From NCBI GenBank assembly GCA_008632985.1, contig QPGO01000098.1, positions 1 to 64,000 of the forward strand: a DNA stretch of 64,000 nt, given 5' to 3'. The position numbers and the translations under genes are program-made. The notes under the pieces are model-generated. The model was not told the origin of the DNA, did no database searches, and worked only from the letters and a program-made list of their open reading frames with translations. This DNA is from Psammoneis japonica (taxonomy: Eukaryota). Of the stretch, positions 3,445 through 64,000 are shown in pieces (within the stretch, counting starts at the first letter, position 1; each line of letters begins with the position of its first letter).

Positions 3445-3597
3445 NNNNNNNNNNNNNNNNNNNNNNNNNNNNNNNNNNNNNNNNNNNNNNNNNNNNNNNN
3501 NNNNNNNNNNNNNNNNNNNNNNNNNNNNNNNNNNNNNNNNNNNNNNNNNNNNNNNNNNNNNNNNNNNNNNNNNNNNNNNNNNNNNNNNNNNNNNNNN
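3445..3597. other. Assembly gap (run of N)
   Basis: 153 consecutive N. Confidence 0.99.
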
Positions 3598-5810: not shown

Positions 5811-6087
5811 TGTTCTAGAGTGGTCTTTGATGCAGTATACTGTATCTTGTGAAAGGCGTCAAGGCCACAAAGACGAGAGAACGCCACAGGCTCAGATGCC
5901 CATGTATGTCTCGCTTTTGAATTCTTTTTTGAAACGCACATAACTATTTCTGTGCTGTTCTAGAGTGGCCTTTGATGCATTACACTGCATCTTGTGAAAA
6001 GCATCAAGGCCACAAAGACGAGAGAATGCCACAGGCTTAGATCCCTGTGTGTGGCTTGCTGTTGCATTCTTCTTTGAAACGAACACA
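5811..6087 (+). repeat. ~145-bp tandem duplication straddling the gene/degenerate-domain boundary
   Basis: 5811-5940 and 5956-6087 both begin tgttctagagtgg and share gccacaaagacgagagaa and tttgaaacg. Third partial start near 6166. Confidence 0.9.
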
Positions 6088-7347: not shown

Positions 7348-7908
7348 CATGCCACGCCCGGGACCCCCGCCGCCCGAATTGACGGACGAACAAAACACAC
7401 CATGGGTCTTGTTCGAAAAGAAATTTGGACCAAGGGTTGGAAAGGCATGGTGACGGGATCTCTTTCGGGTCTAGTATTACACAGCATGGCGTCTGTAGCA
7501 AACAACCGTGGTTATCTACAAACGAAAACAAAACTCAATGCCAGCACGGCACTTGTGGCCACACTTTTGGGCGGTGCCGTGGGTTCCTACACCATGTCGG
7601 TAACGGCGGGAAAGAATCAGGTCCATCAGTTGCATCCCATTTTTGAAACCAACAAAAAAAAGAGTATCGAAGAACAACAAGATGAGGCCATGGAAGAATT
7701 ACAACGCAATCGATTGTTACGACGAGCCTCTCTCAAAGAATCCATGGAACACGGACACGGTTTGGGCGATGCGCACGGTGGACAGTGGAGAAATGTGTCA
7801 ACGGAAGAACGAGAGCGTCATCGAGTCGCTCGACGTACGACGGTACAAGACAGCTTGAGTCATGGACATGGTTTGAGTGATTCGCATGGTGGGAAATGGA
7901 TCAAATAG
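7348..7908 (+). CDS. Small hypothetical membrane protein (two hydrophobic segments, C-terminal HGHGLxDxHGGxW repeat x2)
   Basis: ORF 7402-7908. Probable true start MPRPGPPPPELTDEQ at 7348, joined by a 1-nt indel in an A-run near 7392. Duplicated motif HGHGLGDAHGGQW / HGHGLSDSHGGKW. Confidence 0.75.
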   Translation, partial: HATPGTPAARIDGRTKHTMGLVRKEIWTKGWKGMVTGSLSGLVLHSMASVANNRGYLQTKTKLNASTALVATLLGGAVGSYTMSVTAGKNQVHQLHPIFETNKKKSIEEQQDEAMEELQRNRLLRRASLKESMEHGHGLGDAHGGQWRNVSTEERERHRVARRTTVQDSLSHGHGLSDSHGGKWIK

Positions 7909-8145
7909 TAGCGCTTTTGAGCAGATTGATGTATTCATGATGATTTAGAGCGACAGTCCTTTTGTTGTTGCTGATTTTGGAAGGACCAGCGGCAATTGAT
8001 GACTATCCACTTAAAAATGCAGCAAGAAAATCATACCATATGCTAGATGTGGTTTCTTGCTTTGCTATTTTTAAAATTAGTTTTGCGTTTTGCATTTCCC
8101 CATCCTTCCCCAACACACATATTCACTGTTGTACCATTTGCTCTT

Positions 8146-9933
8146 TTACTTATTTTCTTGTTGTTCTTGTTGTTGTACTCCAATAATTCGATTCATTTCG
8201 TCCTCCAACGTTTGTCCACTTGTAGTTCGTTGACTCAAACACAATCCCACACATTCAAAATACGTAATGACATCTTCGTCGGATGGAGGACTTCCTTCTT
8301 CTAATAAAGTTGCTTCAAAATCCTTCATGGTTTCCATTTCAAGACGAATCGTTTCCATAATGGAATCCAGATGTGTTTGATGGGCTTGTAAGACTTGTTG
8401 TGCAATCAAAACGTGTTCGGCGGGAGGAGTTGTTGTTGTTTTATCCTCCAACAAGACGTGTTGTCCGTTGCTTGTGCTTGCAGGCTCTACTAGTGTTTCT
8501 GCAGCAGTAGTAGGAGCGTCGTCGAAATGACCGTTTGTAGTAGTCGTTTCTTCCTTGTTGTTGGATGTTTCCTTGTGTTGGGGCGACACTACAATATTAC
8601 TCAAGGATTCTCGACGCCATTTTTCTTGTAACAAGGATGATCGTCGACTGCGTTTCGATTTAGCTTGCTTTTTCAATTCTTGTACACCCAACACAAAGGG
8701 CGTGGGCGATGAGTTGCCATAGTCCAAGACACGATTGGGTGATGAAGCAGCATGATTGTCATCCAAAAAATCCGCAGGAAGTTCCTGTTCGCTAGTAGAA
8801 GTACGACTCGATGCCGATGTGAGTCGTACGGGTGGACCCATATTGGTTCGTTTCGGTGGTGGTTTCAAGGGTAAGGCGGGTGCTGCACCCACCACCACCG
8901 ACATGGGTACCGTTGATGAGCCGCCGTAATTACTGCGTCGTGGTGAAGGACTCGCACGTCCACTAAGACCAAACGGACTTGCCGTCAAAGTCCGACGACT
9001 GTTGGGACGTTGCGACGGAGATGTCATGGAGGAAGAATGGAATCGACGAAAACTGCTACTAACGGATCGTCTGCTTGCCATGCTGGCACGAGATGCCAAA
9101 CTGGCTTCGTCCAAAAAGGAAAAGTTGGATTGTGCATCGTCGTCATCATTGTTTTGCATGCTTTTCAAATACTTTTGTATCCGTGGATCCTTTTGTACAA
9201 TGGGATTGTTCTCAATCAATTGATTCAAAACGGTCGGTTCAAATTTCTCATGAATCACTTGCAATCCCAACTTGGCTTCTTGTCGTACGGCCGCACTCGC
9301 ATCCCGCAACGCCCGAACAAAGGCTGTACCGACTTGAATGGCAATTTCCGTTGTGATATAATTGGGTTCCGTCGTCCACGATTCCAATGCCAATTTTAAA
9401 TACAATGTACACGCATGTCGAATGGTACGGCTTTTCGAGAGTGGCAATCGTTCCAACATGCATGGCATGCATGCCTTGCACGGGACCAACGGCAAGACTT
9501 GTGTCGTCATTTCTTGTACCGCCGTTCGAATGGTATTGACCGTTTGACCGTGCACATCTAAAATGATGGGCATGAGTTCCTTCCACAAGAGTTTACCATA
9601 CACACCGGGACGTTTTTGATACAACAAGACCAAACTCTGACAAACCGACTTGACGACTGAACTGCGTGGATCCTTCAACAGTGCCGTCAGAGGTCGGTAG
9701 AGACTACGAATCGATTTGGGAACATTGTACCACATGTCCGAATCGACATTGTCGTCATTAATGCTTTCTACAAGAGATTGAAAGGCATTTGTACGACGTT
9801 TCCATTCATCGGGTTTGGTATCCTGAATGAGCTCTAAAAAATTCACCAAATCCGCATCGTCGACAAATAATACCGTGTCGCTCAGTTTTTTACTCTTTTG
9901 TGCTGACCGAAAGGGCGTGGCGGAATATGCCAT
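8146..9933 (-). CDS. CLASP-N/TOG (HEAT-repeat) microtubule-associated protein
   Basis: Likely start MAYSATPF at 9933. TOG-like 'EWKRRTNAFQSL', 'LKDPRSSVVKSVC' and 'LRDASAAVRQEAK', then a Ser/Arg-rich linker and helical C-terminus. Confidence 0.8.
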   Translation of the reverse strand: MAYSATPFRSAQKSKKLSDTVLFVDDADLVNFLELIQDTKPDEWKRRTNAFQSLVESINDDNVDSDMWYNVPKSIRSLYRPLTALLKDPRSSVVKSVCQSLVLLYQKRPGVYGKLLWKELMPIILDVHGQTVNTIRTAVQEMTTQVLPLVPCKACMPCMLERLPLSKSRTIRHACTLYLKLALESWTTEPNYITTEIAIQVGTAFVRALRDASAAVRQEAKLGLQVIHEKFEPTVLNQLIENNPIVQKDPRIQKYLKSMQNNDDDDAQSNFSFLDEASLASRASMASRRSVSSSFRRFHSSSMTSPSQRPNSRRTLTASPFGLSGRASPSPRRSNYGGSSTVPMSVVVGAAPALPLKPPPKRTNMGPPVRLTSASSRTSTSEQELPADFLDDNHAASSPNRVLDYGNSSPTPFVLGVQELKKQAKSKRSRRSSLLQEKWRRESLSNIVVSPQHKETSNNKEETTTTNGHFDDAPTTAAETLVEPASTSNGQHVLLEDKTTTTPPAEHVLIAQQVLQAHQTHLDSIMETIRLEMETMKDFEATLLEEGSPPSDEDVITYFECVGLCLSQRTTSGQTLEDEMNRIIGVQQQEQQENK

Positions 9934-44850: not shown

Positions 44851-45064
44851 AGAGAAGGCGGATCTAGAATTAACCATCTTCTCTCAGCTAGCTCGCTAGA
44901 GTAATATTCTGGTTACAGACTCCTCTAATAAGTCCCAGTTAGCATGCATTTGAAAGCTCTAGAGGCATTCCGCTAAATCATGGTTTTGACGCGTATTGTA
45001 GCGTAGCAGCGTCGCGGAATCAACCATGTCGAGGATTGCTGACCACGTCAACAACTATCACTTC

Positions 45065-45530
45065 TTAATGCTTGGCCTCTTCCTCGCGAAGGTGCTGAAG
45101 CTGAATGTCCAGCTCGTGCTCGATCAATTGAAGGTCCAACTCCTCGTCAGAACACATACCAAAGACCTCGTTGCGGATCCTTTCGTTGTACAAGTCTGAG
45201 GAACGAAGCGAGTAGCGAGGAAGATCAAGTACACTTCTGTGAGACTTGTGCGTTTCAAATATCGTTCATTCAATCTGCACGCTGAGCGTACATCGTTCCG
45301 CAGTTTTGGCGATACTTGCCTTTTTTCAACTCTTCGACCTCAGCCACAGAGCATTCACCAGCATGCTCTGCACATTCCCTCGCCCTATCAATGTCGGAAA
45401 AGAGACATTCCTCTTGATCCAAGCCTGCAGAAAGAACAAATCGGCGACCTACAAGAGCAGGTCGAGGTTGAAAGGAAGCCGCCGTCGACAAGCCAGCGAT
45501 GAACACAAGGTACGAGAAAGAAGACATCAT
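45065..45530 (-). CDS. Small plastid-targeted hypothetical protein, one intron (probably GC-AG)
   Basis: Presequence 'MMSSFSYLVFIAGLSTAAS^FQP' (ASAFAP-like) and 'RARECAEHAGECSVAEVEEL'. Second exon 'LYNERIRNEVFG...LREEEAKH*'. Confidence 0.75.
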
Positions 45531-48118
45531 GGTGGTGTCAACAATGCAGTGAAGAGAATAATGCTTCTCGTTCTATGTTCGCAATGCCGGAACAAGATTC
45601 GGAGTTTTGTTGCCGGCTTGGATGCAGTTTTGTGATGTGAAACAGCTGCGTTTCGCGTGAAACAACAACAGCCTGGTCATCCGTTGCGTCATGATGACGT
45701 CTTTCGTCCCGCTGCCGAGCGAACCTCATCCCGAGTGTGTTTCATTGCCAGGCAGTTGTTTTGCATTTGTTGGCTGAGGAGTGGCAGGTTGTGTTCTAGA
45801 AGAAGAAGTGATGGAGTTCCCAAAAATGGAAAAAAGAGTTAGAGCTCCACTTTGCTTGTGGCACAACACACGCCATGGCGTGCCAACAAAGAATGCTCTC
45901 CTTCTACTTGAAAAATGTGAGCTCACTCATTCTAGAAAAATTGCAGCCACGCAAATGGGGAATTGCACCAAATTCCCACTCACTTGGATTTTGCATCGCG
46001 TGTCAAAACTTTGCGCCATTGCTGCTTGCATTGTGGTCAGCTCAGCAGGAGTGCTCAGGCTGTGACGCATCTTGCGCGAGTGATGCCATCATGCTGCTGT
46101 GCATCACTGCAGTTGCCCGGGGGGCAGACAATGTGCAGATGCTGCGTGCATGGATGCTCAAGGCATTCCTCTGAGATGTGCCCCCAAGTTGAGGAGAGCC
46201 ATGAACTTTTGGGCCGTGCTCTCCAGCTGACAAGCGCAGCACCTGAGCAATGCTGCGCGGCCCGATGCTGCTGTGCACAAGAGGCCAATGCACAGCATTG
46301 CCAGGGTGTCCAGCAGATGCTTGCCACACACTCTCCCATGACTTGGGATGTCAAGCATTGGAGTGTGCTGCTAAAGACAGGGCACAATCTGTCACAGTTT
46401 GCACATGTCTGCAAGCACGCCATTCTGAGCACGCAAGGCGCCATTGTCATTCCTGCTCCACACAACTCTGGCTGGGCCTGTGTGACAGTCAGCGCCATGC
46501 TTTGTCTTTTTTGTTGTTTGAAAAGTGTCAATCATCTGACAGTGCATTGATGCTCCTTTTGTTTTGCATTTTTAAGCTTGTCTTTGGGCAGATGAGCTCC
46601 TGCTTTCTGTCTTCCAGGTGCAAACTTTCACTTGGCAGAATGGGCAACAGACAAAATTTCATCCCATCTGAAGACCACCTCTGGGTGCAAGACCTGTGTG
46701 TGTGGTTGCATGCACTGCAGCATGTGTGAAAAAAGCTGCAGCCGACAGGATGCCACTCCAAGGGTTGCCCTTGTCCAGCTCCATCTGTGAAAGGCAGAGG
46801 TCTCAGACTGCACAAGAGTGGTCCCTCCCAGAACCACACTGAGTTGTCAAAAACACATCTGGCTGTTCAGTTGATTGTCCTCAGCAACATTGTGCTGTCA
46901 GTGCACACACACAAAGGCTCTCCATGGCACTCCAAGACACTCCAAGCTTGGAAAACAACAGACAGAAACAACGCCAAGAAGTGATGTTGCCCTCCTCCTT
47001 GCATCCAAGGAGCCGTGCAGTTGCACACTTGCTTTGGACTGAACAATTCTCTCACACAGCCAGCCATTTTTGCCCATGAACACAAAGGCAGTTGCACAGT
47101 TCTCTCACAAACCCACATGTGCCAAACATGGTTGCCTTCAAACACAACTGCATTTCTTGCAGATCTGCTGGGTCTTGCTGCCAGTGCAATTGCAGTCTGC
47201 AAAAATTCATGAAATGGATGACTCAAAGGTCACACTCGCTTTTGACTGGAAGAAGCAAGAAGCAGCCAAGGACATCAAGGAGAGTGGCAGATGGTGTTTG
47301 GTTGCATCTGAGCCATTCTGCAGCCAGAAGTCAATCTTTGTGGGGAGTCTGCCAGCAAATTGCAAAGAGCCTTCTTCCATGAGAGGAGCTCTTCTGCCCC
47401 AAAACCTGAAACTGCAAACTGCTGAGCATTGCCAGCTCAAGAGCGCAGTTTTGGCACAGTGATGCACCCAACACCAGCCATCAATGCCCATGCAAGTCTG
47501 CTCTCCCTGTGTGTCCTCTGCAGGGTTGGCTGCACAGACTGCTGGCTGCTGCGCCGCCGATTGGTCGCTGCAAGCTGTGCCAAAATGGAGTGTTTGGAAG
47601 AGCTGCCAGGAGAACAATTCTGCCTCTGTCATTTTTTGCATGACTTAAATGGTGGCCAATGGAAACAATTGCACCTGTTTGTCTCTTTTGCTCTGCACTG
47701 CCTTGCTTGCTGCCTGTCATCAGTTGTCCTGGTGCAGTTTTTTCACAACACAAGCGGCGCCGTTGTTGCACATTGCAATGACAAATCCCACAGCAGCCCT
47801 GCCCTTTCCCGCGTCCTTCATTGCCTGCCATCTTTTCACATGTCCTGCTGACTGCTCTTGAGCTTTTGATGCAAAATCGCAGTGGGAGGCATCTGAGACG
47901 CAACTTGTTTCAGTTCCAGCATTGCTGCGCTGGTGTCGAGCTAAATGTGACATCCGTCTGTGGGATTCTACCCAGGACACAGGTCCCATCTGTAGAACAT
48001 GCTGCTGACAATCAGCACAAGGCACTGAAAGCCAGCAACACAGCAATGAGTTGTCTTGCCAACTTGTGCTCAGTTGAAATTACAAGCTAAAACCAATGTA
48101 AAAGTGATTCTCTTGTTT

Positions 48119-51100
48119 TGTAATCCCAGAGATCTCGAATGATGCCACGTCAGAAAATGGACATTCTTTGAATGTCATTCACGCAGAACATGCACTGAGG
48201 GTCACAGTGGAGGTTCGACACTTGCATTGAAACTTTCTGATGTCTGACTTAGCCGTGTGGAAATTCTGAGATGATTGGACGTCTCTGAATGTCCACAGTC
48301 TTTCTAAGATGTCACACTCCCTTTGAAAGTGTTGGGCAAAGCTGTGACTTGATCTAATTCACCACTTGAGGAGCTTCTTTTGAAGGCAAACAAACATGTT
48401 TTGAGGCACAGGCTTGGTCTCCATGTCTGCGATTTGTTGAGTGGTGTCAATGGGCAGAATGGAAATGATTCCCTTCCCAACATGTTCCTTGAAATGATGC
48501 AGCTCCAGATTGAAATGCTTGGTTCTTGGTCTCATCTTGGGCAGTTTTGCAATTTCCAATGCACCTGAATTGTCTTTGAATGCTTTGCAATGAACTGAAG
48601 GAGTCTTGGATGGAACCTTGTGTCCACACTCTTGAAATTCCTTGACAAATTGATGACAGGAATGGTGCTTCGGAGTCGGCTTCTGTCGCACTTGGTGCGA
48701 TTTGTGTCTGAATCTTAGATGTCCAAACTGCAGGGCAGTCCGTGCAGGCAATGACGCATCCGGTCCTGGACTTTGAAGCACTGACATCAAAAGGCACAGT
48801 CATTTTGTTCCAATTGCCTGCAAAGTCTGCATCGGCATGAACTTCCAATGACTTGTCTTCCGTTGGTTCAAGAATGATGACACCTTCACATCTGGTTGCC
48901 TGCAAGCACTTGCAAACCACAGTGCTGCCTCACCATGTGATTGCTTGGGGTGCTTGAAAATCATGCGATTTGATGTGTTGCACAAGCCATGTTGGGTCTG
49001 CTGCACTTCTCGAGGAAGTTGAGCTTGCCAACCACAGTTCGGCAGTCAAAAGAGCTGTCAAATGGCTTTTCATTCTCGTGTTGGTGCAGTGTCTTGGAGG
49101 ATGATGCTGGAGTTTGCTTGTCCGGTGCGCGACATGGTGAGTTTGCCATTTCCAGCATCTGCTGCTTGATCATCTGCGGTTGCGTGAGTTTCACACATCC
49201 ATCAGGGAGGGTCTCGATGCTGACACCAAGATGGTCATCAATGCTCCCTTGATCGTCGACATCAAAATTCTCATTGCGCATGTCGCAACAGCAGCTTGGT
49301 TGACAGCAGCCTTGTCTGGTGAAGCAAAAATGCCATCATCAACATGATGTGTGAAAATCACATTTCCTCTGCAACAAGACATTTGTCAACTTGTGATTGT
49401 TTGAAACCAATTTTCTCCAGACCTTGCCTCAAGTGTTCACCCCAAATTCTGCCTGCTTGTTTCTGTCCATGTGGGTTTTTCAGCAACTTCAGAACATCAG
49501 TTTTGCCATCACCACATTTGGTTTCAATGCCTTTTGGCAGTTCCACATGCACGTCGCACTCGATGTTGGCATGAGGACAGGCCAGCACAAAATTGACTTG
49601 GCGAGGCTGCCACCCATTCAGAACGGATGGGATGAGTGGGAGGCAGACAGTGTTCCAATTGATGACAGCAGCATGAGTTTGAAAGCAGTCAACCGTGCAC
49701 TCTTGTTTTCCACCATGCACACTGAGCCTTGACTTGCACTTGTGCACCTTTCTTGTTTTGATGTCTCTCTTTCTCTTCACAGACCAGACCACTGGGAGTG
49801 TGTCTGCACCTTCTGGGACTTCTTCAACAGGTGTCAGCACCCAGTGCTTGCACACAATGTGGTCATTGACCTCCTTGATGCACGCTTTGATGAACTCATC
49901 ACGGCCCGATTGTCTCACAGCTTGATCAAAACACATGGCATTGGGTCTGTCTTGGCCAGAAAGGCAAAATGTGAGTCCATGTTGTCTTGCAGCTTGCAGT
50001 CGTCCTTGTGCATTGCATTGCGGCACTTGCAACAGGTCAATTGATGTGATGCGATGCAACACCAGCGGCCTGTTGTCACAGGCTTTCGACCATTCGTTGC
50101 GTCGGTTTGCATGCTCCGCCAGACCCGCCAACACTTGGTTGTTCCGATGCTGTCTCTTGAGTGTCTTCAGGTGGCAGATCTCCTGTTGATTTGGTCATCT
50201 TGACCTCAGTGATGGGGAAATGTTTGTCTTTGAGTTGTCATGGAATGTTGGGTTCCGGCGCCAAAGTGATCTGCGCTGGCGCAGCGGAGCGTGGCTCCCT
50301 CACTTCCCTTTGGGTCTTGAAGACATTGAATCTTGATGTTCTTTGTTTCTCGAGTCCTGGTGCAGTTTGCCATTGCAAGAAAGTGGGTGCATTCCCTGCC
50401 AAAGGGCACGCCATTTCGAAGAAGTCATTGAATTGGATGTGAAACTGCGGCGAGGCAAGTCCCGTCTCAAGGTTGAGTGCTGGATTGACTGATCCGGCGT
50501 GTCTTGGAGATGGTCCCAAGTTGATCCCCAACCTTGCTCTTGATTGCCATTTGGGCACTCTCTGTCCACTCTGCAGTTGGCTGTCCAGTGCATGGACTGG
50601 GCATCCGAAAGTGTGATGTTGCTTGAGATTCGGAGCTGCCTTGACGGAGGTGAATCGCTCAATTGGGGAGCTGCCATCTTCGCAGTCAGGCAAGTTGTTC
50701 TTGAGCTTGTTGGTGTTGCGCAGTGCACTTGGCCAGAGATTGATCTCAAACGCCATTGGTCATCTTGCTTTTGCACGCAGCAGCTGCTTGCGAGTCTGTT
50801 CTTGCAGGTTGCGGATTTGCTTTTTGGCAATGCCATTTTGGAAGTGGGTGTTGACGCCCCAGCATGACATGGTTTGGCCTTGTTTCTCAACGTCTTGCAT
50901 GAAAGCATTGTCAGCAAATTGGCTGTTGTTGGCATGGCAGTGTTTGATTTGGACATGATGTCATCTTGCAAAGGCTTCAAAAGCATGCTTGGCCTTCAAG
51001 GTTTCTTCCAAGGCAAGTGCAGTGTGCATGCAGACAAAAGGTTGTTTTTGTCACGCCCTTTGTGACATTTAAAGGCTGCAACACGTCGCCGTGGTGCATC

Positions 51101-52597
51101 AACTCTTGTTGGCAGCTGTGCGTTGCACTCCTCCCCATGTGTCACGCGTCCATGCGGCTCTTTGCTGACGTGCACTGACACTGCACGGTTTTGGCAGAAC
51201 AGTGTGGGTGTGCACAAAGGAACAGGCAGAACTGCACAGAGTTTCACATGTTCGACAGTGATCAACGTTGCTGCAGACAACTCCCACTCAGGGTTTTGAA
51301 CCTCTGGCCTCCTGCCCAATGGTTGCGATGAACCACTCCACTGTGAATTCACAATGCAGCATGCATGCAGACAAAAGGTTGTTTTTGTCACGCCCTTTGT
51401 GACATTTAAAGGCTGCAACACGTCACCGTGACACATTGACTCTCATTGGCAGCTGTGTGTTGCACAAGTGATCGTTGCAGGAACAAGCACTGCTGTTGCT
51501 GCTCTGCATTGCTGTTTTGCAGGTCTCCCTTTGAATTGAGGGATGAAGCCTGGGGTCAAGCTTTCAAGTTGATCTGCTGACATCACCTCCCCTGGCTTTG
51601 CAGCAACATGCATGTTTGATTTCCATTTGGACTTGGCATGCCAAGGGCGTTTGGTCATGACGCCGCAGAGGCAGCCAGCACATTTGGGTTCCTTGACCTT
51701 CAGGAGGCATTGCGGGAGGATGCCCAACAATGCAGCTAGGAGCTTGATCATTTTGAATGATTGGTGTCCGAGGTTTCAGTGCCAATGCAAAATTTCACCT
51801 TGGTCATTGGTGGCCACTGGGGCATGATCATCAGGGATGACGTTGATGGGGTCTTGCAGGCGGGTTTGGACTTCTGGGGTTGCCAGATCCTTGAGGTTCT
51901 CATCAGGTGAGTCAGATCTGTGTGCAGCATCCATCAGTTTGAACAACAATGGCACTTCCTCATCATCATTGTTGCACATGCCTTGGGTCTCGTGAGGACC
52001 TGTCTCATCAGGACTTGTGAAGGTGCCTTTGTCATTTGCAGCGTCCGCGGACTCTGAGTCGTTTGCGTCGTCTGGAGGCATTGTGTGCATTTGACAGGCT
52101 GCGTGTTCAACAGTCTTGATGTCCTCAGCAGCATCAACTGCAGCGGCAAATGCCCAACAGTCAGTGGCACCGGGTGTGGAACGGAAGCATGCAATGTTGG
52201 AGTTGTTGGTCCAAGGGACCAGCCTTGCGCACTTCCTTTGATCCCACATGAGCAGGAGACTGTCGTCGCAGTTCCAGGAAGTCATTCCGTGTGGTTCAGG
52301 ACAATGATCCTTGGCTTGCTGGCTCCATTGCTGAGGGCAGAGGAGGCAAATGGGTGAGTTGGGAACATGCAGTGCATCGTAGATGGTGATTGTGTGCACC
52401 TGTCCGTCATCATCCTTGATGCGCCATTTGATTGTTCCTTCTCCTTCTGCACTCAACCATCCGCCCACTCCCTTGGTCCGCTTGTTTGCAGGACATGGGT
52501 CACCAACAAAGTGCGATCTGTCATTTGACATTGTGCAGGTTGCGTGGTTGTCAACACCAATGATGAAGGAGTCAGAGTCGCGGGATGCTGGTTCCAT
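48119..52597 (-). mobile_element. Decayed Ty1/copia LTR retrotransposon (diatom CoDi-like pol), 5' part not recognisable
   Basis: Domain order: protease (IGVDNHAT), GAG-pre-integrase (CAGCLCG), integrase (WPSALR, HTFGCPV), RT (KSRLSVHGGKQ, HVDDG), RNase H (DADFAGNW, SRTG, QIADMETKP). Purine tract aaagggag precedes TG at 48316, the putative 3' LTR start; LTR end near 48119 is uncertain. Confidence 0.92.
51018..51464 (-). mobile_element. 447-bp TRIM-like non-autonomous LTR element nested in the copia integrase region
   Basis: Two 110-bp direct repeats (51018-51127, 51355-51464), each TG...CA. 4-bp TSD caag (51014-51017, 51465-51468). PPT GGGGAGGAG on the - strand immediately before the 3' LTR. 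Confidence 0.88.
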
Positions 52598-53223
52598 CCT
52601 CGGCCCTCATTTGAATGGCGTCGTGGTGGTTGAGGTGTTGGCGTAGACTGTCTTGTGAAAGGTGATCTCGCACTGAGCCTTCTTGTGTGCCATTCAAGCA
52701 GGGTGGCCCTTCTCATGGTGGATGATGGAAATGACTGAAACACACATCGGATGTTGCCACAAACATTTTTTGTCCTCGTTTTGGCTGAACCATCAGACGG
52801 TTCAAGTTCTCCGTCCCTTCCCCAACAGGGACACTGCCCGCGCCACCCACTCCGGCACTTCCAACCACTGGCGACTTTTTGCTGTCTGTCCCCGGCGTGC
52901 CTCCAAACTGTGTTCAATGTCATGAAAGCTGCAATCAACAACATTGTCTTTGCTTTTAAAGACTCCGTTTTTCAATCTTTCTTGGGGCAATTCGACTCTT
53001 CATCAGCTGACGTGTGGCTGACATCCGGAACAGTGCTGCACACACTGCAACAGCAACAACACAAAGGGATGGTCATCCATGCCGATTCACCCCAGTGCTC
53101 TGATGTAAGACAGCAACACTTGTCAGCATCCTCTTGCCACTGGCATCCCCAAAAAAAAACAGGACCGAAAGTTTGGCTGCTGCCTTTTAGGGAAACATGA
53201 CATTGCTCCAGGCCTCAACAACT

Positions 53224-54500
53224 TCATTGTAGAGTTTGCTGCCAGCTGATGCAGGTGCCGATGCAGTGCAAACCACCATGGGCCAAGTGTTGCACGTGAG
53301 CCTGTTTGCTGAGAACATGGGCCAATGCCAGACCATCGTCACGAAGTGAGACGATCTTGGTGGCGTGGGGAGCATCCAAACCCCCTGGAATGTCCAAAAT
53401 CGGGTTGATGAGTCGAGCCAAGGCTGTCTCCTGATGCCACCTGGACTCTGTCCAGGCGGTCCAATTGGATCTCACTGCCAAGGGATCTTGGTTCTCCTCT
53501 TCCTTTTCTGGAGGAGGCGGAGGTGGCAAACCCAGGTGCGTGCACCAGCACCACCACAACCAGTCCATCGGCGGGAACCATGACCTGGAATTCATGCAGC
53601 AGCTGATGGAATCGGCGGCTGGATCAAGCATGGGTGCAAATGTCAATGACGTTTGAATTTGACCAGGATGGCAATGATGACCTTCCATTGTGGCCATGGT
53701 GGCCAGATTGCCGCCGGCCGAAACTCCCAGAAGATGCAATGGATGGTTCGGCAATGTTTCCACAAAGTGCAACAGTGCCGTCAATGTTTCCGTCACGGCC
53801 CTTGGGAATCTGTGGTCGGGGGCCAAACTGCACTCAACCGAAGCCCAAATCAATGGTTGCCCCACACGTGTGGTGAGTTCGAATCCGTCCGGTGCACTTG
53901 CCGCACCAATGTGCATCCCTCCACCATGAAAGTCCACCACGATGGGAGCATCTGCTTGGAACTTGTCTGGATCCAATGCTGTTTCCATGGTCCAGCAACC
54001 GATCTCGTTTTTTTCTTTGCCAAGATCACCTGCCTGCTTGCAGATCGATTGGGGGAATCGAATGATGACAAGAATGTCATCTTTGGGAAGATTGTTTCCA
54101 GGCCACCACAGTCTGCTTTGTCGCAAATGTTCCGCTCTTTCAAAACACCAGGTCGACACGGCATCCTGTGATGGCACTCCACGATGTTGCAGCGCATGCT
54201 TTTTGTCCATTCTGTGATGTGTTTTTTGTTCGTGGCAGGAAAATTGGAGGCAAAACTGGCGCGGAGCTGGTGTGTTTCCACCTGCGTTCGACGATTGGCA
54301 TGGGTCGTGGGCAGAGATGGAAACTGATGCGTGGGCAGCATGATGCTGAGCAACCAAGTGCACAAAACATCCAACCACATCCTGGTGGGGTGGAAGAAGG
54401 GACTGTGAGGCTTCTTCTGACTGCCGGGCTGCAGAGGAGGAGGAGTTCCTTGAGTTGTTTTCCCTCCTTTGGACGAGCAAGCCACTTTCGTTCCTGCCAT
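53224..54500 (-). pseudogene. Decayed hormone-sensitive-lipase-family (Abhydrolase_3) esterase
   Basis: 'VDFHGGG', 'VECSLAPDHRFP' (family consensus VxYxLAPEHxFP) and 'GVSAGGNLA'. Frameshifted, with no Tyr in the 452-aa ORF-track translation. Confidence 0.8.
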
Positions 54501-54989
54501 GGTCTGAATGCTGTTGAGATTGCAGAACAAAAAAAATCAAGGGGATGAACACACAACAACAAAGCAAACAAGTGCAGAGCACAACGTGTTTTCAGGTGAC
54601 GACGTGTGCAGGATTCATCCATTTGCTTCTTTTCACTGCCAGCAGTGCATGCGTGCACGAGCACGACACACAGGGAGTTCCGGGTTTTCTTCCAAACGAC
54701 TGAAACAATTGAAACCCGGAACTTCCAGTGGAGCGGAGAATGAAATGAGATTCAAGATTTGGTGCGTGCGGGCTGGCGCACGCACGTTTGGCAAGCCAGC
54801 CAGCACACTTTGCTGCATCCAAAACAGCGGCACGGAAAAAGCAAGGGAATGGGAAAACTTCAGTTGGACCGTTTTTTGACGCAGCCACGGCAAAGAGATT
54901 GCCATTGTCATTTCACAGTGCTGCGCTGGTGCTGATTGACAGCAAGACTGCAAGAAAGGGAAGAATGTGGGGCAAAACCAGCCGGTCGA

Positions 54990-55200
54990 TGGCGATGGGG
55001 AAACGCAAGTTTCCTTGGATGCAAGATCAGGGAGAGAACGTGTGCGATGTTGCAAACAGGGTCTTTTGTGACAACAGTCGGTTCGTGATGGACCTCATTG
55101 AAGACAAGAACAGCGTGCTCTTCACGCATCCTTTGCAACTGGGCAAGACGACACTGTGGTCGCTGGCGGAGCTCCTCCTCAGCAAAAAGAGGACCTCGCA
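54990..55200 (+). pseudogene. Decayed AAA-ATPase-like (PF09820-type) N-terminal fragment
   Basis: 'FCDNSRFVMDLIEDKNSVLFTHPLQLGKTT' versus the family pattern YxDxxxxI...LFxRPRRxGK(S/T). R->H/Q changes fit CpG decay. Confidence 0.5.
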
Positions 55201-58200
55201 TCCCAACCAATCACATGAGCCGCCACCCCCAATGGGAAGATGGAGCTGGTCTCAGTCTCTTACAAATGCTGCAATGCAGCAACCTCATTTCTTTGGATGA
55301 TCCACAGACAATCATTTTGTCTGTGACTGCTGAAAAAGCACCCAAACACATGTTTAGTTCAATGAAGTTCATCTCTTTGCATTGACGCAAAACAAACAAT
55401 CTCGCAACCAAGTCATTGGCACAGAGCTGTCATTGACATGTGTGTGTTTGCCGGTGTGGCCTGGACCGCGCGAAGATTGTCAAAATGTCAAAATGGCATT
55501 TCAACATTGACGGGGACCCCCCGCAAGTCTGTGCAACCATCCAACGGAGCATTTTTTGCGAGTTGAACGCAACTCTTCTCGTGTTGTCACCACGGTGACC
55601 TTCCTTTGAAGTCTGTTGCATGCCAACCTTGTTGCAGCTGTCCTGCTGGCGATCCTTTTCAACAAATCGTTTGTTCTGCTCCTGTTGCTGACATTCAGTG
55701 AAAAGGATCGCCAGCAGAAAGTGTTTTGCAACAACAACAATTGCACCTCAATGTCGCCGTCACCAATCAGCAGCAACACCCCAAACGCCTCCAAGCCGGC
55801 TCAAATGGAAGAAAAAGCCGGCAATCCTGGCAGATGATGCACGGGGCCAGCATGGAAGAAAACCAGGGTTTCAGTGCCATGGGTGAGTCGCAAAATGTCA
55901 ATGTTCCTTGTCAGTGTTGCATCAACGTCTTGCATCTCACAAACGTTCATTTGGTCGTTGCAACTGTCCTGCTGTCAATGCTTTCACACAAGTCATTTTT
56001 TCTGCTCCCATTGGTGACGTTTGATCGAAAGGATTGACAGCAGCAGGCATTTTTGTGACAATGATTGTTTGTCTCTATGTCGCCGTCGCCAAGCCAGCAA
56101 CACAAAAAACGCCTCCACCAGGTCATCCAAATGGAAGGCAAAGCCGATGGAAAGAAATGAAGGAAGAGGCGCAAGCAAGAGATGTGGAATGCCCCAAGCT
56201 GTTCCTTTGTTGATGGAGAAGTTTTGAGTGTGAAAATCACCACAAGCTCTGTCTTTTGTGGATTGGTGGCAACAAACAAACATGCATTCAGTCAGAGGCA
56301 CCGGAAACAAAAAGGGAAAGTCAAGATGTCTCCTGTGGGACATTCACAATGCCTGCCCATCAGAGAATGACAGTTTGAGGGTTTGAAACATGGTCTGAGC
56401 TGGGACAACTGCAGCTAGAAACACTGCTGTTTGTCAGCATGTGCAGCATTTGCCACAACTCTGCATTCCAGGTTTTGATTCTACAACTCTCATTCCAGGT
56501 TGTGTCTGACAGAAAGACTCTACAGAGTGTCACACTGGTGTCTCACAATGGCAATTGCTGCAGTGCTTGAGCAACTCCTGCACAGAGAAACACCCAACAC
56601 ACCAGTTGTGTTGCGTTCTCGTGGATGGGCTTGATTGCAGTCGTTGTCGAACAGAAACACTCTGCAAAGCATTGCATTGGTGTCTTGTGATCATGTGTGA
56701 ATGGTTGTTGCTGTGCTCAAGCAACTCCCACACAGAGAAACCGCTCTCGAGCGTCATCCTGCCGCATGCCGGCACGCAAGGGCACGCTGCTCCACCGCAG
56801 CTCATTTGCAGAAGCAATCGACTGATCAACCAATTTCTCGCCCAATTCTTTGGATCCGCCATCATCAACAGTCTCGGAATCTGACTCAATGTGATGTGTT
56901 TCCGAATTGCCAGAAGCATCGGGAGAAGCATGACCTTTGTTCTTCTTGCATGTGCGAGTGGCCTGCTTCCGACAAAGTCTGAATTGCCTCCACCACTGCC
57001 GCGCCGTCCTTTTCCCTCGCGTTGCTGAGGAGATGTTTGTTCCCAATCCTTTGAGGAAGACACCCTTCAAAATTCTGTGCATCACAGCAACCATGTTGGA
57101 GTTCTTCACCCGCCAGAGCGACAGCGCAGTGGCACTTGCCTCTGCAGTCGTTTGCTGGGAGGGCAACTGAATTTGATGCGCCTTAGAGGCAGATGAGACA
57201 TTGGACTCATGGAGTCCTGGAAAGCCACCAGATTGCAGTGACTTCAGCACAAGGTCACTGTCCATCCACACACATGGAACCGCAGCTGGAAAAGCGGCAA
57301 TGAGAAGCCACACAGCCTCGACAATCTCCGTGGTTGGTTTGCTGTTTTTGTGACAAAAAAAAACATCACGCAGCAACCACGGAGCTGAAGGAGCTACGGA
57401 CAACGTACAGACTTACGGGGGGTCCCCATTAAAAGGGCGGTCCAGAGATTGCCTGGTGCACTTTTTACGTAGAAACTGCCAGAGAGCCAATCACGTACAT
57501 TCCTGCACAGACGCAGTGCAAAACAGAAAGCATGGCACTCCATCACGCGACCTCACGACGACACCACCTGATGACAACGCATCAAAATGGCATCGTCCGC
57601 ATCTTTCTGCAGCTCCTCTTTCACTCACCCGATTGCTCCAAAAGGGCCAGGGGAAGCTAACAAGCTTTCTCTCACAATGGAGCAATGCAAACAAAAGTTG
57701 TTTTTTATTCCAAAATCTCAGAGCACAGTGCAACCGATTGTCAAGGCGAACTCGCACGTTGGCGGCAACAACGCCAGTCAATGTTCACTCTAGAACAACA
57801 ATGGAGACGTGACACCCCAACAAAATAAAGTCCATGCCCCCATGACAAATTTTAAAGCTGGTTCTTCTTGTTGGTGTGCAATCTTTAGCTGCTTTTTAGA
57901 CTTGACAAAATGATCATCTGCCCCGGCTGTCACCCTCCAAGTTTGTTGCATTGGCTGACAAATTGGGCAAGCAAGCCACACATTTCTAGCTCACAAACTA
58001 CCTTGCAGCCAAAAGAAGCAATCTAAACTTTCAGAACAGCCATGATGCACTGGTCTGCCGAATCAAACTCCGCATCACCAAGTGGAGGCGGGGAGAACCA
58101 TTTTTCAAAAATGCACTGTGAAGGATCTGAGCTCTTGAGAGCTTGTCCAGCTTTTGACGCCATAGCCCCAAATCACCACATTTGTTGTTAAGTCAGCCTG

Positions 58201-59051
58201 ATGCTGTGTCTGTGACTTTGCCTCGTTTTGGAATTGCCACGGCCATCGCATTGCAGAATTGACATCCTTGACGAGGAAAAGTGTTTCTGGGATGCCTTGC
58301 GACGACGGAGACCCTGCAGAACAAAAGAACAATGTAGAAAGAGACAACACATGTAAGTCAAACGGGTGTTAATGTATAAAGCCTCAACGAAACACACAGC
58401 ACGAATGGTGATACATAAGGTCGGTCGTGATGCAACAGAAGCGACGCTGTCAACGCGAACCTTCAGTGAGAATTTTCACCATCAGCCACCCATGTGAACC
58501 TGTGCACTCTCGAGCTTGTCACATACCTTATGCTATGACGTAAGATATTCCGTTGAGAGTACACTACAAAGTACCTCAGAAACAACCGTATTTTTGAAAT
58601 CGGCGAAACGCCATTGTCCGTGTTATTTTGCGTGTTATTTTGCGTCGCGAGCCAGAAAACACTCCCAAAAACTGTTCTACAGGGCAAAATGTACTGAATC
58701 TACACAGATTTGGGTTGTACCAGGCCACGTAGAAAATGAACGGGCCGAGAACTGTGGTACGCCCACTTAATGGGTCATTGTGGTCCCAGTGGTTCAAGGT
58801 GGTTTCACAGGATGGGTTTGGATTGGCAAAGCGACAGTTCCATCGCCGATCGCCTCAAAACCCGGATGCTTTGTAGGATTCTGCGAGAGTTTGAGTACCA
58901 ACCCGCGGCGAACGGTGCAGAGAGAACCGGAACAGTCGCGTACTACACAGTCTACACGGTCGTAACGATACACTGCAGTCAAACCGATGAACATGCAGCG
59001 CAGGCACATAGACTCTACGATTCGATTCAACACCCTTTGCACAATATCATC

Positions 59052-60939
59052 ATGAACGGCAGTAGCAGTGTGGTCGAGACGGTGCAAGTGAACGATGAGA
59101 ACGAAAAGCCATTGGGGAGAGTCAAGGTTGGGGACACGAAACTGCAAGCTCTGGAGCGACTTTCCCGTGTTGGAGCTGGAGGACTGTATGACAAGTACGA
59201 CATTGGTCTTCTCGACAGTGAGTGTATCACTGCGGAAGCAGCGCCTTACATTTTCAAGGGGGGAACGGGGGCACCGCCCGATGATAAGAAGCGGAAGTAC
59301 GGGGAGTTGGAGACGGAAAAACTTACGCATTATGACCCCGCCTTATTCTATTCCCCTTCTGACACACCGCTGCCAGTCGTATATGAGAAGGACGAGATTC
59401 AGCCGTTTCTGGCGCCTGAAGGTTGGTTGAATGACACTGCTAAGGATGTGTTGAAGCAGGCCGATCTCAAAGAAACGAACAACCCTCGTGTGAGTCCGGT
59501 TGCCCTTGTTCGGTGCAGCCGTGGGGGGAAAACGAGATCTATGATTGAACTTGCGAAAGCAGTTCGAGCTCAAGATTCTTCGTATGGCATATTGTACATG
59601 ACTTTCAATACGGACACTCCTCTTCAACACAAGCCTGCTCGTGATCCTATGGCAGAGCTTTGTGTCAGAATTGCGTTCGCAGCTTCCAAAGTTCGGTCGG
59701 GGCCTACCAAACAATATGAAGAGTTCCTCGATTTCTCCAGAGCCAAAAGAGTTTGTCGACAATGGGTTGAGGATTGGTTGGGAAACAACAAGTGTATTCT
59801 CTTCATTGATGAGCTGAACATGCTCCAGGACACCATTGGCCCCGAGGAAGCAATTTTCCTCAAGCAAAACTTCCTGCTTCCAAGCGGGAGGGGGCTCGTC
59901 TTTTCATCGCACGTGGCTTCATTCAGCAACGAACTCGTCGATTTCATGTCGTCTCCAAGTGATCGAAAAAGTCATTACGTGCCCTCTCCCGATCATACCG
60001 TCTCTGCGTGAAGCAAGAGATCAGTTTCGAATGCCGGATTTGTCGCCGCAGGATGCTGTGTTCTTGGGCTTGATTCCAGGGTTGATAGTAGAGAGAAAGC
60101 TGCATCGTGCACCGACAGAACGCCGAATTAACGCCGTCGAGAAATTCCTCGGAACTGTCCGAAACCAAGAAGACGTTTGCAAGCTCGTAAGCTCACTGTT
60201 GACGGGAGAGTCCATTGATAGCTCGTTGCAAGAGCTAACAACCGTCGATCTTAAGCATGACGGCACACGGATTCTCAGGTGGATTCCTTTTCACCTGCAC
60301 TACGTGCTTGATCGAATCTCTCGGGAGTGCCCATACGTCGATACGCAAATGCGCCACTGCTTGTCATCTATTGTTGATCTATTTCGGCAATTTGCAGGTT
60401 CAAAATGGGAAGCTGGAGATGCGTGGGAGGCCCTGTTCCTTATTGTTTTGATTGTTCGCTGCCAAAGTGGGGAATTCGACGATGCAGTTATCCCATTAGG
60501 TCCTCTCATCACGAGCAGCATCCAGGTGCAGTACAACAGACCACTGAACTATAATGTTGACTTCTTCAAGGAAACGAATCCTGTTGACTTTGTTGGAGGT
60601 ATCCCTCTCCGAAGCTGGGCGCCAGCGGGGACGTGCGCTTTGTCCATCTACTATCCCGGGCACGCCCGGTTTCAGGCATACGACGTCATCCTTGCCTTTT
60701 GGGATACGGCTGGAAACAGGTTGTTGTATGGGTACCAGCTGAAGGAGGGCAGCACCATCCCATCAGTGTTTGCGTTTGACCAAGTGTTCAAAAAGAGTTT
60801 TCTTATCCGAGGGAAGACGACGCAGGGAAGTCGAAGTGTGAGATTGTGGCACTCGGTGAGTGACACCGAACTGGACAACTTCTTTGGGGTGTCAGCCGCT
60901 CACTGGTCTGCAAAGCAATGGAGAAAGCTACAGGAATAA
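59052..60939 (+). CDS. Crinkler-like P-loop NTPase + REase-fold protein; one apparent frameshift at the A-run ~59966-59970
   Basis: Variant Walker A 'LVRCSRGGKTR', Walker B 'ILFIDELN', then 'GDAWEALF' and 'YYPGHARFQAYDVILA...YGYQLKEG' (PD-(D/E)XK-like D...QxK). Likely start MNGSSS at 59052. Confidence 0.72.
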
Positions 60940-61272
60940 ATAAATGCATATTGGTAGTTGTTATCTCTCTTTTTCTCTCTCTCGATATGCGCAACCCCTT
61001 GTAATTACCGCGGGAAGGAAGCAAGAAACAGTCCGCTCTCCAGTGCCGCAGCGTGTCCCGAAAAGGCGACCTTGTGTGGGCCGTGTGCCGTGTGCCGTGC
61101 TACTGCTGAGGGGGCTCGGCATCGCGTAGTTTTGAAGGTCGACGCCCACGCCCTTCCCCAAAAAAGAAAGACAAAATTCTATATTTTAAGTGCTGCTCGA
61201 ACTCCACTCGCCACTAGCTCCAAGCCGGCCCACACTCCCAGTACACCGAAGTGCGGCAGAAGTGGTTGTGGA

Positions 61273-64000
61273 TTAGCCGACCGCGGCGTCACGAGATTGT
61301 GACGCCCATCCAAAGTAGCTGAGAATAGTCCGAGTACCGCGCACGGCAAGTCGTTTTGCCTCTCTCATGCTTGTTTTAAAAAGTGATTTGTTCGTAGCCA
61401 ACCAGTTACGAATCTGATGAGTCGACTGGTTTAGATGCTCTTCAACCGTGTCGAATAAATAATGCCGATCCTTTGCCAAATGTTCATTCTGTCGTTCGTA
61501 TGTCAACCTGAGTTCAGCCTCAGCAAGTCTGCGCTGTGCAGACTTCCACGTTTCTTTGTCGTGTCCGTGAAGAGCCTTATTGTGGTCATCCCATAAAGCC
61601 CACCATTCTTTCCACACAAAAGAACCAATGCTGGTCACCCAATCACTTCTGCGTTTGTTAGTGTTACCTTCATCTGACCTCACGCGACGCTCAAGTGCGT
61701 GAAACCGTTGGAGCTCATTCCACAGATGCGAAAAAACGACCGTTGAAAATCTGTCGCCATCCGACAGCCTGTTGTGAAGCAGCCACTTGGCGCACACGGG
61801 GATGAATCGAAGCAACATTGAGAACTTCCTCATTGAACCACGCTTCCAATCCTTGCAACAACAGATCCCTCAAAGGAGGCATCGCATCTAATTCGTCACA
61901 GCGCCGACGTGAGCCTTGCAAAAATTTTTCGACGCCACTGTGCCTGTCTCGGGCACCGAAGGATATGGTCTCGATCCTCCATGGGATGCTGACAGTGGAG
62001 ACAACAGTCCGATCGCGCAGGATTGCATCGATGTGCAATCTCATTCACAGGCAAAACATCCTGAACCAACCCAACGGTTCCAACTCTGTGTTTGGCATGA
62101 CAATGCATTAAAGTTGCGTGCGTCTTCCAGTCGACTTGGTTGAAGACCTCTTCAGACCAAGAGTGCTTTTGCTTCATGTGCTCAATTGGCACAGGAGATG
62201 CTGCTGCGTGTCGAATCTGGCTCTTGAAATTGGACGTAACAGCTCCTTTCTCGAGAAGAAAATTGGCAGCGCAATGAGGCAAGCGTGGTGCAGTTTCAGT
62301 GTCACCAAAATGTTTGCCCTGGAATGCTCCAGCCAAGTGATCGGCCCGAACGTTCAACCGCACATTAAGAGGAAGTCGGGAAAGCGGAGTGTGGCGATCC
62401 TGGTGTCCTTTAACCCATTCAACGGCAACAAAAGTGCCGCTCTTGTCTTGCACCCGGCATTCCTGTAAATCAAGAAAAGCATGAAGAATTTCGTTCACGA
62501 CATCCCAATCCGGAGACAATGTGTGCGAGACATGGTGACGAAGAAGGAAATCCGTTTGGCTGTCCAAGGAGCATTCCTCACACTCAACGGGAGGAGGGGT
62601 GTTGAGATTTTGGACTGCGTTCACGAGGGAGCTGTTGTCACACACAGACAAAAAGCCTTGCAAGAAAACCGCATCGCAAAATTCCATCAGCCGAAGCATG
62701 AATCGAGACACAGATGACAGACCACATGCTTCCGCTCGGTGCGAAGCAGGGCGTTTCCCAAAAACCGGTCCAGCACAATCAACCAAAATAACTCCTTCAA
62801 TCGTGAGTGTCCAACCAAAGGTGGCAGACTCGTGTGTGATGGAGCCGTCGCTGCCCATTTTTCCAATCGCAGTGCGAAGGGCATCAGCAATCTCAAACAC
62901 GGAGCGGTGCAGGGTGAGGAACAACTCAAAGTCAGATGCACTTGGAAGAGCAAGCGGAGCATCAAATCCCACTCGCTGAAAGGAGATTGTCCAATGTCCA
63001 GTGTCGGCAGAATCAACGAAGATGGGAACAGCAGCAGAAGAAGGATGGGGAACCACTTCCAACGCACTCACCGAGTCAGCGCTCACATTGGACACCGGAA
63101 AAATTTCAAAACCCAAGGGTGATCGAATGTAAAGGAACTGTTCAGTTGAAGAGAAACACGCCGATGCCTGCATCCGCATTTGGTCCACTGGGACCACCCA
63201 ATCCCCTGAAGGCTCCCGTAAGTCGCAGGCATCTGAATTGCAGAAAAGAAGGCATGCGCGTCGCCATTGTTTCCAGGCGGCTGGGGACGGATTTTCCTGG
63301 TCAACAAAAATTAATCTGGCAGGTGCTGCTGGCTGGGGGATGGTTGTCCCAGCACTTTAGATTCATCAAGACTGAGGCCATCAGGAAGCGCAACATCAGA
63401 AAGCGTGAGAACCTGAAGAAACAGACGGCAATAATTTGCCAAGCATGCTTGACGATTGGCGAACATTCCTGACTCCAGGACCGCGTCCACAATGTGTTGG
63501 TCGTCATTGTGCTGAAGGGGAAGAACTCCACTCTGATCCAGTTCCATTCTGCCATTAATTCGAGAGAGGAAGGACCGAAGTGACATCAGCCATTTTGATT
63601 CAGAATGGGGAAGAACCGCAGTGACGTCATTGAGACAACTAATTCCTGTGCCCAGATGAAGTTGTGTCCACGAGACGGCAATGCGCAACAGCAAATTCGG
63701 CTGACCATCACCTCGCCAGTGCTTGAGAAATTGGAGAGCTTGAGCCAATCCTTGTTCCACATCTGGGGAGCGAAAACCACCGCCTCCCAACGAGCAAGGG
63801 CCACACAGAAGATCCCGTTTCGTGTTGCGGTTGTAGCCACATTCAGCAAAAACAGCTCTCATGGCTTTCCGTTGGATCTCAAGAAGTTGCTTGGGCAGGA
63901 AATGAGTGTTCGGGAGAACGCAGGCAACAGACGGAAGACAGCTTGCATGACAATGAGTCCAGGCATTGCTGCGGGTCATCGGACAGTTTCGAACAAGAGC
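61273..64000 (-). mobile_element. 3' part of a non-LTR retrotransposon (LINE with RNase H and C-terminal zinc knuckle, Ambal-like), frameshifted, running off the window end
   Basis: Post-RT 'NRNTKRDLLCGPCSLGGGGF'. RNase H 'SDGS...GW...RAEACG...CDN...WVKGHQD...LNVRADHLA'. CCHC 'CLHCQHPMEDRDHILRC', 'QQAVGWRQIFNGRF' and 'WALWDDHNKALHG'. Confidence 0.9.

Follow-up and report, generated by a model that had tools for sequence, protein, structure and literature searches.

How can one and the same transposable element be stripped of a dinucleotide over most of its length and yet keep it at one end? This question is raised by the last 2.7 kb of a 64,000-nucleotide stretch of Psammoneis japonica DNA (positions 1 to 64,000 of contig QPGO01000098.1, assembly GCA_008632985.1; hereafter the window), where the 3' part of a long interspersed element (LINE), a retrotransposon lacking long terminal repeats (LTRs), lies next to a conserved diatom gene. 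An initial annotation of this DNA had described a gradient along a single LINE, in which the dinucleotide TpA (TA) was spared beside the gene and converted further in. Taken together, our analyses confirm that observation as a whole and partly support the interpretation that came with it. TA content drops across an edge no wider than ~250 bp, with a short ramp at most, and then stays on a flat plateau, and the LINE probably straddles the border of a position-defined TpA hypermutation domain, its tail lying in the unmutated island of the gene.

A sharp edge in TA content within the LINE

The portion of the LINE in the window (61273-64000) holds 31 TA, 15 of which fall in the 397-420 bases nearest the gene (observed/expected ratio (O/E) 0.54) and 16 in the other 2.3 kb (O/E 0.12), and to find 15/31 TA within 420/2728 bp has a binomial p of 1.6e-5. 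Counted by part there are 15 TA in 61273-61692 (O/E 0.54), 9 in 61693-63192 (0.10) and 7 in 63193-64000 (0.15), which agrees well with the estimates in the initial annotation of about 16 in the ~420 bp beside the gene and about 10 over the next ~1.5 kb. The best change point for TA lies at 61670 (likelihood-ratio statistic 19.9), and a two-state hidden Markov model (HMM) fitted to all 13,329 TA/CA/TG sites in the 64-kb window independently sets the LINE boundary between 61675 and 61681, its posterior standing at 0.1 near 61630 and at 0.9 near 61725. In the LINE body beyond this boundary the loss is limited to TpA and is matched by a gain of CpA and TpG (O/E: TA 0.12, CA 1.38, TG 1.41, CG 0.81). 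CpG, as had been noted, is still common on both sides (tail O/E 1.09, body O/E 0.81).

The shape of the transition was taken from the share of TA among TA, CA and TG sites, which is 0.28 in 61273-61500, 0.105 in 61501-61675, and then 0.036, 0.053, 0.011, 0.056 and 0.034 in the bins that follow one another up to 64000. These data are described equally well by a step, by a sigmoid (width ~90 bp) and by an exponential (length ~176 bp), all with log-likelihoods of -105.3 to -105.6, whereas a linear gradient over the whole LINE fits more poorly (-110.3). The word gradient in the initial annotation therefore has to give way to an edge, which lies within 61465-61725 and is followed by a plateau.

The LINE is a single element

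The window holds the C-terminal 907 codons of the LINE's open reading frame (ORF) and its stop codon (61273-61275), and the element continues past the window end. By tblastn all 15 of 15 full-length relatives (1194-2073 aa) are collinear with the LINE from 64000 to 61276 on the minus strand; residues 1054-1962 of the 1965-residue relative P0002 align to it, for example, and E-values within the family reach down to 1e-147. As assembled, the frame changes near 63335/63307, 61925 and 61731. Short-read contigs, however, lack one homopolymer base at each of 59966, 61731, 61925, 63307 and 63335 (runs of A5-A6, T5 and G5), and each of these five extra bases breaks a frame, the first that of the conserved gene and the other four that of the LINE; in all likelihood they are indel errors of long reads that the assembly has kept. 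When the four LINE bases are dropped a single open frame of 907 aa results, running across the TA edge. The collinearity of the 15 relatives, together with a frame that is continuous through the edge, excludes two separate insertions, and the assumption of a single LINE in the initial annotation is borne out.

An exhaustive HMMER search with the 198-aa LINE tail recovered 493 relatives at E<=0.001, the long ones matching at their C-terminus, although a word-indexed search had returned no longer relatives of the tail. N-terminal Exo_endo_phos domains are present in the relatives P0002, P0003 and P0011 and an RVT_1 domain in P0011 (residues 792-974), so that the APE endonuclease and the reverse transcriptase core map upstream of relative residue ~1054, i.e. 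beyond the window end. For the C-terminal zinc knuckle that, along with RNase H, marks this class of LINE, the zf-RVT profile scores 14.8 bits against the window LINE ORF (E 0.046), under its cut-off of 27.5, with a collinear Cys/His pattern, and the relative P0002 likewise stays slightly under this cut-off at 25.8 bits. A Pfam search returned no family for the LINE tail, no further copy of the LINE turned up elsewhere in the 64-kb window by blastn or tblastx, and neither a poly(A) nor a poly(T) run can be seen in the spacer between LINE and gene, where the true 3' end of the LINE was not found. The best match of the LINE tail, P0016, is a predicted protein of 3045 aa with 30 separate stretches matching tail residues ~80-114, and may represent LINE 3' fragments arrayed in tandem in another genome and translated as one protein.

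Relatives and Tyr codons place the change in the LINE body

A scan of metagenomes left us with 80 related loci, of which the 42 that hold both body and tail were used for TA O/E. Median TA O/E in these relatives is 0.72 for the body and 0.65 for the tail (tail range across the family 0.31-1.02). Their tail/body ratios have a median of 0.94 and reach 1.35 at most, compared with ~4.5 in the window LINE. Since this ratio never exceeds 1.35, the contrast is not a matter of family composition. None of the 42 is a hypermutated copy (the lowest body TA O/E is 0.46). The initial annotation had held that the same intact 3' end in other copies, whatever their neighbourhood, would speak against it; the metagenomic relatives, none of them hypermutated, do not bear on whether spared tails recur.

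The codons for Tyr, which begin with TA, tell the same story. In 761 aligned columns of the LINE body we found 3 Tyr where 29.3 are expected from the relatives (Poisson p = 9e-10), along with an excess of Cys (29 vs 16.5 expected) and of His (36 vs 27.2 expected). The 17 body columns in which Tyr is the majority residue now read 7 Cys, 3 His, 3 Tyr and 4 other in the window LINE, and in the control columns the residue is kept at 12/13 positions with a Phe majority and at 16/17 with a Trp majority. The 7 Cys (TGY) and 3 His (CAY) are the products of A:T>G:C change at TpA on either strand. In the LINE tail, by contrast, 122 columns hold 3 Tyr vs 4.0 expected, and three or more would have p = 0.008 had the tail been converted like the body; the tail has only 3 Tyr-majority columns. 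The three tail Tyr noted initially (in LTYERQ, RHYLF and LSYFG) are real TAY codons, two of them at Tyr-majority columns (13/15 and 10/12 relatives). The Tyr to Cys or His changes suspected further in hold for the Cys of RAEACG (Tyr in 13/15 relatives), the Cys of HRCNP (9/15) and the first Cys of LLCGPCSLGG (10/15), but not for the His of QKHSW, where the 15 relatives have Asn in 9 and Tyr in 3. Loss of Tyr and of TA, with gain of CA and TG, in the body alone indicates that the body was converted A:T>G:C on both strands and that the tail was not.

Converted and normal segments alternate along the window

The LINE is one part of a window-wide pattern. TA is very scarce across the 64 kb (1105 TA, O/E 0.26), and its scarcity is bimodal in 1-kb bins, with O/E either ~0.45-0.9, accompanied by CG near 1, or 0-0.1, accompanied by CA and TG O/E of 1.6-2.1 and CG O/E of 0.1-0.6. 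The HMM divides the window into 8 converted segments, in which TA makes up 0.7-3.8% of TA/CA/TG sites, interleaved with 7 normal ones (14-22%), and this alternation shows that conversion is limited to regions and that the DNA beside them is ordinary. The older converted segments have TA O/E of 0.02-0.06 and CA/TG O/E of 1.6-1.9. A reverse transcriptase of the copia type also lies within converted DNA. The LINE body is the least converted of all (3.8% vs 0.7-1.7% TA; CG O/E 0.81 vs 0.19-0.52 in the others), and is thus the youngest or the least exposed converted segment. The LINE tail is continuous with the unmutated HMM segment of the gene (57374-61675), and the TA edge lies ~0.74 kb past the gene's stop codon.

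Conversion of TpA is unable to create a new stop codon. Per kb we count 1.6 TAA and 0.9 TAG in converted DNA and 8.8 TAA and 7.7 TAG in normal DNA (sums 2.5 vs 16.5), and because these stops are erased and none is newly made, converted DNA has long open frames in several phases. One such frame, of 455 aa (53224-54591, minus strand), lies inside a fully converted segment, matches an alpha/beta-hydrolase (Abhydrolase_3) and consists of Cys to 4.4% and of His to 7.0%, with Tyr at 0%. Most likely it is what conversion has left of a gene that is not from a transposon, a copy now dead, and a hydrolase ORF with no Tyr inside a converted segment means that non-transposon DNA was converted too.

Several smaller features of the window were also seen. 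An island of 182 bases (47959-48140) keeps TA (6/44 sites) within a converted block that carries copia sequence; it is almost free of CpG (1 CG, O/E 0.12) and could be either a spared patch or a later small insertion. A search for LTR pairs across 45000-58500 found just two short repeat families and no paired LTRs that could serve as an independent test. An assembly gap of 153 N (3445-3597) falls within a converted segment.

A second version of the LINE

Contigs from DNA short-read runs of the same organism (X1 and X2, one sample) were placed on 57000-64000. Over the gene the X1 contigs are nearly exact (1 substitution and 1 gap in 1818 bases), and over the LINE their divergence from the window is 1-2%. 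Our counts come from 20 listed difference sites over the LINE, a further 449 differences lying outside this list. At 6 of the 20 the window has CA or TG and the contig TA, at 3 the window has CA and the contig TG at the same site, and at 1 (61500, in the tail) the window has TA and the contig TG; 6 more are of CpG type and 4 of other types. Independent changes at TA sites in separate versions indicate that the process acts on DNA in place. According to the fully listed contigs, since the two versions split the window lineage converted 5/13 body TA vs 0/9 tail TA (one-sided Fisher p = 0.049), and the other lineage 3/13 body TA and 1/9 tail TA. Contig depth, which is not a copy number, is 91, 97.6 and 153.9 over the LINE vs 56.4 and 60 over the gene; this hints at more than one locus, and the second version may be either a copy elsewhere or the second haplotype.

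What separates the tail from the body?

We consider it probable that one LINE straddles the edge of a TpA hypermutation domain set by chromosomal position, with its tail in the unmutated island of the gene. Several results weigh against this account. In the 849 bp compared between the two LINE versions, ~23 sites share the same product and 3 have opposite products, a degree of sharing that departs from independent conversion (p = 4e-5, or p = 0.046 if ancestral TA is estimated as conservatively as possible). The second version's tail is also intact, keeping 8/9 tail TA with 1 difference in 300 bases. These shared states imply that the body/tail contrast was for the most part in place before the two versions split, and if the second version sits at another locus the contrast would be partly inherited and not made by this neighbourhood. 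Moreover, the test specific to the window lineage is marginal (p about 0.05) and based on listed differences, and the CpG contrast (1.09 vs 0.81) lies inside the family's normal spread. We had in fact tried CpG as a second marker of the edge and dropped it, its tail/body ratio of 1.35 being within the spread of the 42 relatives. The tail does belong to the gene's unmutated segment, but the argument of the initial annotation, that one insertion has one age and that the difference should reflect chromosomal position, is weakened in that a second version shares most of the conversions and also has an intact tail.

The alternative that draws on most of these points, and which we regard as unlikely though it deserves to be taken seriously, is that the contrast arose in an ancestral copy at some other place and was passed on, or that it is intrinsic, targeting always omitting the last ~0.5 kb, the converted sequence then having been duplicated segmentally or by mobilisation in trans; its position beside this gene would then explain little. 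A 98-99% identical version that shares most CA/TG states and a TA-rich tail fits this, and the LINE contig depths, higher than those of the gene, hint in the same direction. Copying of a converted LINE is also conceivable, because TpA conversion makes no stops and the 907-codon frame stays open. However, with 26 of 29 expected Tyr lost a working protein is very unlikely and so is autonomous copying, the 5/13 vs 0/9 conversions in the window lineage suggest that the differential continued here after the split, and the second version could be the other haplotype of the same locus, in which case the positional account stands. As for the intrinsic variant, we know of no mechanism that exempts the 3' end of a LINE. 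It is improbable, in our view, that the tail was instead renewed by gene conversion or recombination with an unmutated copy, or joined on by the assembler from near-identical copies. The tail contig is indeed the deepest (153.9) and nearly identical between versions, the assembly is not fully polished (five homopolymer errors), and among the listed contigs none bridges 61636-61700. On the other hand, frame and family alignment are continuous through the edge, and every near-identical version has an intact tail, so that a mis-join among them would not make the pattern. Nor does the tail have to be younger than the body, since the 4 listed differences of other types all fall in the ~2.3-kb body and at that rate 0 in the 300-bp tail contig has a probability of 0.59.

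Little room is left for the idea that there is no mutational difference at all, and that the contrast came about by chance, through the composition of the family, by selection acting on the tail or from two unrelated insertions. The tail sample is admittedly small (15 TA, 3 Tyr and 3 Tyr-majority columns), but the binomial p of 1.6e-5, the absence of a ratio above 1.35 in any of the 42 relatives, the 15/15 collinearity and a Tyr deficit confined to the body make this very improbable; chance, family composition and two insertions were rejected on the binomial p, the 42 ratios and the collinearity, respectively. Least probable of all is editing before integration, by an ADAR-like activity on LINE RNA or by a deaminase on cDNA, from which the 3' end escaped. 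Gradients along retroelements are known for APOBEC3G. ADAR favours U before the edited A, according to a preprint on Bigelowiella natans (bioRxiv 10.64898/2026.01.13.699255). Yet the sense strand of this one element has changes of both kinds, A>G at 7 sites (Tyr>Cys) and T>C at 3 (Tyr>His), CA and TG are equally enriched (1.38 and 1.41), CA and TG outcomes differ between integrated versions at 3 sites, and window DNA that is not from a retroelement was converted as well. Hyper-editing at the RNA level, which should leave changes of one strand type, was rejected because both types occur and the integrated versions differ at TA sites.

In the positional account that we favour, the LINE would lie tail-to-tail with the conserved diatom gene across a chromosomal domain edge. 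Within the domain a TpA-specific A:T>G:C mutator, working on DNA in place, would turn TA into TG or CA on either strand, and would have removed ~80-90% of the ancestral TA from the LINE part inside the domain, from ~61.7 kb onward. The last ~0.4 kb of the LINE ORF and the 3' end would be untouched, sharing the unmutated island of the gene. We infer that the domain is silent or methylated chromatin and that the chromatin of the active gene keeps the mutator out. By analogy with the proposal made for B. natans the chemistry may be adenine deamination, and a modification of thymine that mispairs with G would give the same outcome. A bolder version, that a border set by the gene holds the mutator out to within 1-2 nucleosomes, that the mutator is still active, and that sister LINEs diverge at TA only on the silent side, can be put forward only tentatively, and we incline slightly to doubt it.

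The neighbouring gene and its surroundings

The gene beside the LINE encodes a conserved diatom protein of unknown function (Table 1). Its relatives include a JGI protein (83% identity, the best), an MMETSP transcript (65%) and a hypothetical protein of Nitzschia inconspicua (47%), and a Pfam search assigned it no family. Without the extra base at 59966 (an A5 run), as the X1 and X2 contigs read, two ORFs of the window fuse to one frame of 722 aa. The spacer that follows should hold the 3' untranslated ends of gene and LINE. Over 60550-60941 additional short-read contigs cover the 3' part of the gene at an identity of ~83-84%, with 49-66 differences over 315-392 bases and a depth like that of the exact copy, and we conclude that the gene has at least one diverged paralogue or allele.

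Upstream of the gene, 57000-58870 has a summed short-read depth of ~830-9,000 vs 56 over the gene, and TA is normal there from 57374 on. If this DNA is a high-copy repeat, repetition alone is not enough to draw the mutator. Scans for tandem and inverted repeats (56.5-61.4 kb and 57-58.9 kb) gave no classification of this high-depth DNA, and tRNA and Rfam scans of 56-64 kb had no matches.

Table 1. Coordinates of the LINE, its two parts and the adjoining features, as positions in the window
Feature	Position	Strand	Basis or support
3' part (2.7 kb) of the LINE, an APE-type non-LTR retrotransposon with a single ORF	61273..64000	-	15 collinear relatives (tblastn)
Unconverted tail, last ~134 codons of the LINE ORF	61273..61675		15 TA, O/E 0.54; CG O/E 1.09
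Edge zone of the hypermutated domain	61465..61725		range of the change point by profile likelihood
Converted part of the LINE (TpA>TpG/CpA, partial)	61681..63994		16 TA in 419 TA/CA/TG sites (3.8%)
Spacer between the two convergent stop codons	60940..61272		normal TA density, 16 TA
Gene without introns, encoding the conserved diatom protein (function unknown); start codon approximate	58950..60939	+	12 relatives, 570-663 aa
Unmutated domain: gene, flanks and LINE tail	57374..61675		HMM: 136 TA in 798 sites (17%)
Converted segment upstream of the unmutated domain	48143..57371		HMM: TA 1.0% of sites

Relation to known systems

The closest precedent is the hypermutation described in mutation-accumulation lines of B. 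natans, where A:T>G:C changes at TpA only are reported, limited to regions of integrated nucleocytoplasmic large DNA virus (NCLDV) and virophage DNA (Mettrop et al., bioRxiv 10.64898/2026.01.13.699255). There the hypermutable region reaches ~21 kb past the annotated viral insert, an ADAT2-like DNA adenine deaminase is proposed, and TpA-depleted coding sequences are enriched in reverse transcriptase and endonuclease-reverse transcriptase Pfam families (bioRxiv 10.64898/2026.01.13.699255). Judged by its sequence signature, the process at our LINE appears to match this type of TpA>TpG/CpA hypermutation. Both systems affect TpA alone, yield TpG and CpA, are limited to regions, target foreign or mobile DNA and lead in the long term to TpA depletion with CpA and TpG enrichment, and the ~21-kb overreach means that the edges of domain and element need not coincide. 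The differences are also clear. B. natans is a rhizarian, whereas the host here is, by the relatives of the neighbouring gene, a diatom-like stramenopile from a different supergroup, and mutations there were measured de novo, whereas here the process is known from sequence alone. Conversion in the window is far more complete (TA O/E 0.02-0.12, against a Rho of 0.45 in the NCLDV region) and, unlike in B. natans, comes with CpG decay. Finally, we place the edge within ~250 bp or less inside one ORF, a point not taken up in the preprint.

A comparison with repeat-induced point mutation, known as RIP, is also instructive. RIP of ascomycetes runs in the direction CpA>TpA and leaks into adjacent single-copy DNA. 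The two processes share a dinucleotide-specific transition hypermutation on both strands that disables mobile DNA, and limits that are not exactly those of the element. However, whereas RIP makes TpA from CpA, here TpA is destroyed (O/E 0.02-0.12) and CpA and TpG go up, and, unlike in RIP, no stop codons can be created (TAA plus TAG 2.5 per kb in converted vs 16.5 per kb in normal DNA). With regard to the duplication that triggers RIP, a second LINE version does exist, yet 57.4-58.8 kb, at a depth of 2,200-9,000 (not a copy number), keeps normal TA. The layout of the window also resembles heterochromatin-euchromatin borders and the decay driven by 5-methylcytosine, in that domains of kb scale stand beside gene islands and TA-poor segments have lost CpG. 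Unlike in such decay, the main mark is TA loss, which deamination of methylcytosine cannot give, and in the LINE this loss (O/E 0.12) is far ahead of that of CpG (O/E 0.81).

Implications

Our full-text literature searches returned no account of a TpA-targeted A:T>G:C mutator in diatoms, and the one prior report of a mutator aimed at TpA in this way, that 2026 preprint, concerns integrated viruses in a rhizarian alga. What is new here is the spatial edge, at which conversion goes from absent to ~80-90% complete in at most ~250 bp, within one reading frame and at the edge of a gene. So sharp an edge argues that the mutator is aimed by chromosomal place and not by sequence identity, and the locus offers a concrete site (61.5-61.7 kb) at which maps of chromatin, methylation and transcript ends could bear on what confines it. 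There is a practical side for annotation as well, in that the long open frames of converted DNA can be mistaken for genes and that homopolymer errors break real genes in this assembly. A type of mutation that makes no stops would leave long open 'ghost' frames that gene callers take for genes, and if the bolder version of our account is true, the pattern of TA, CA and TG in any transposon here would be a fossil record, at base resolution, of the limits of silent chromatin.

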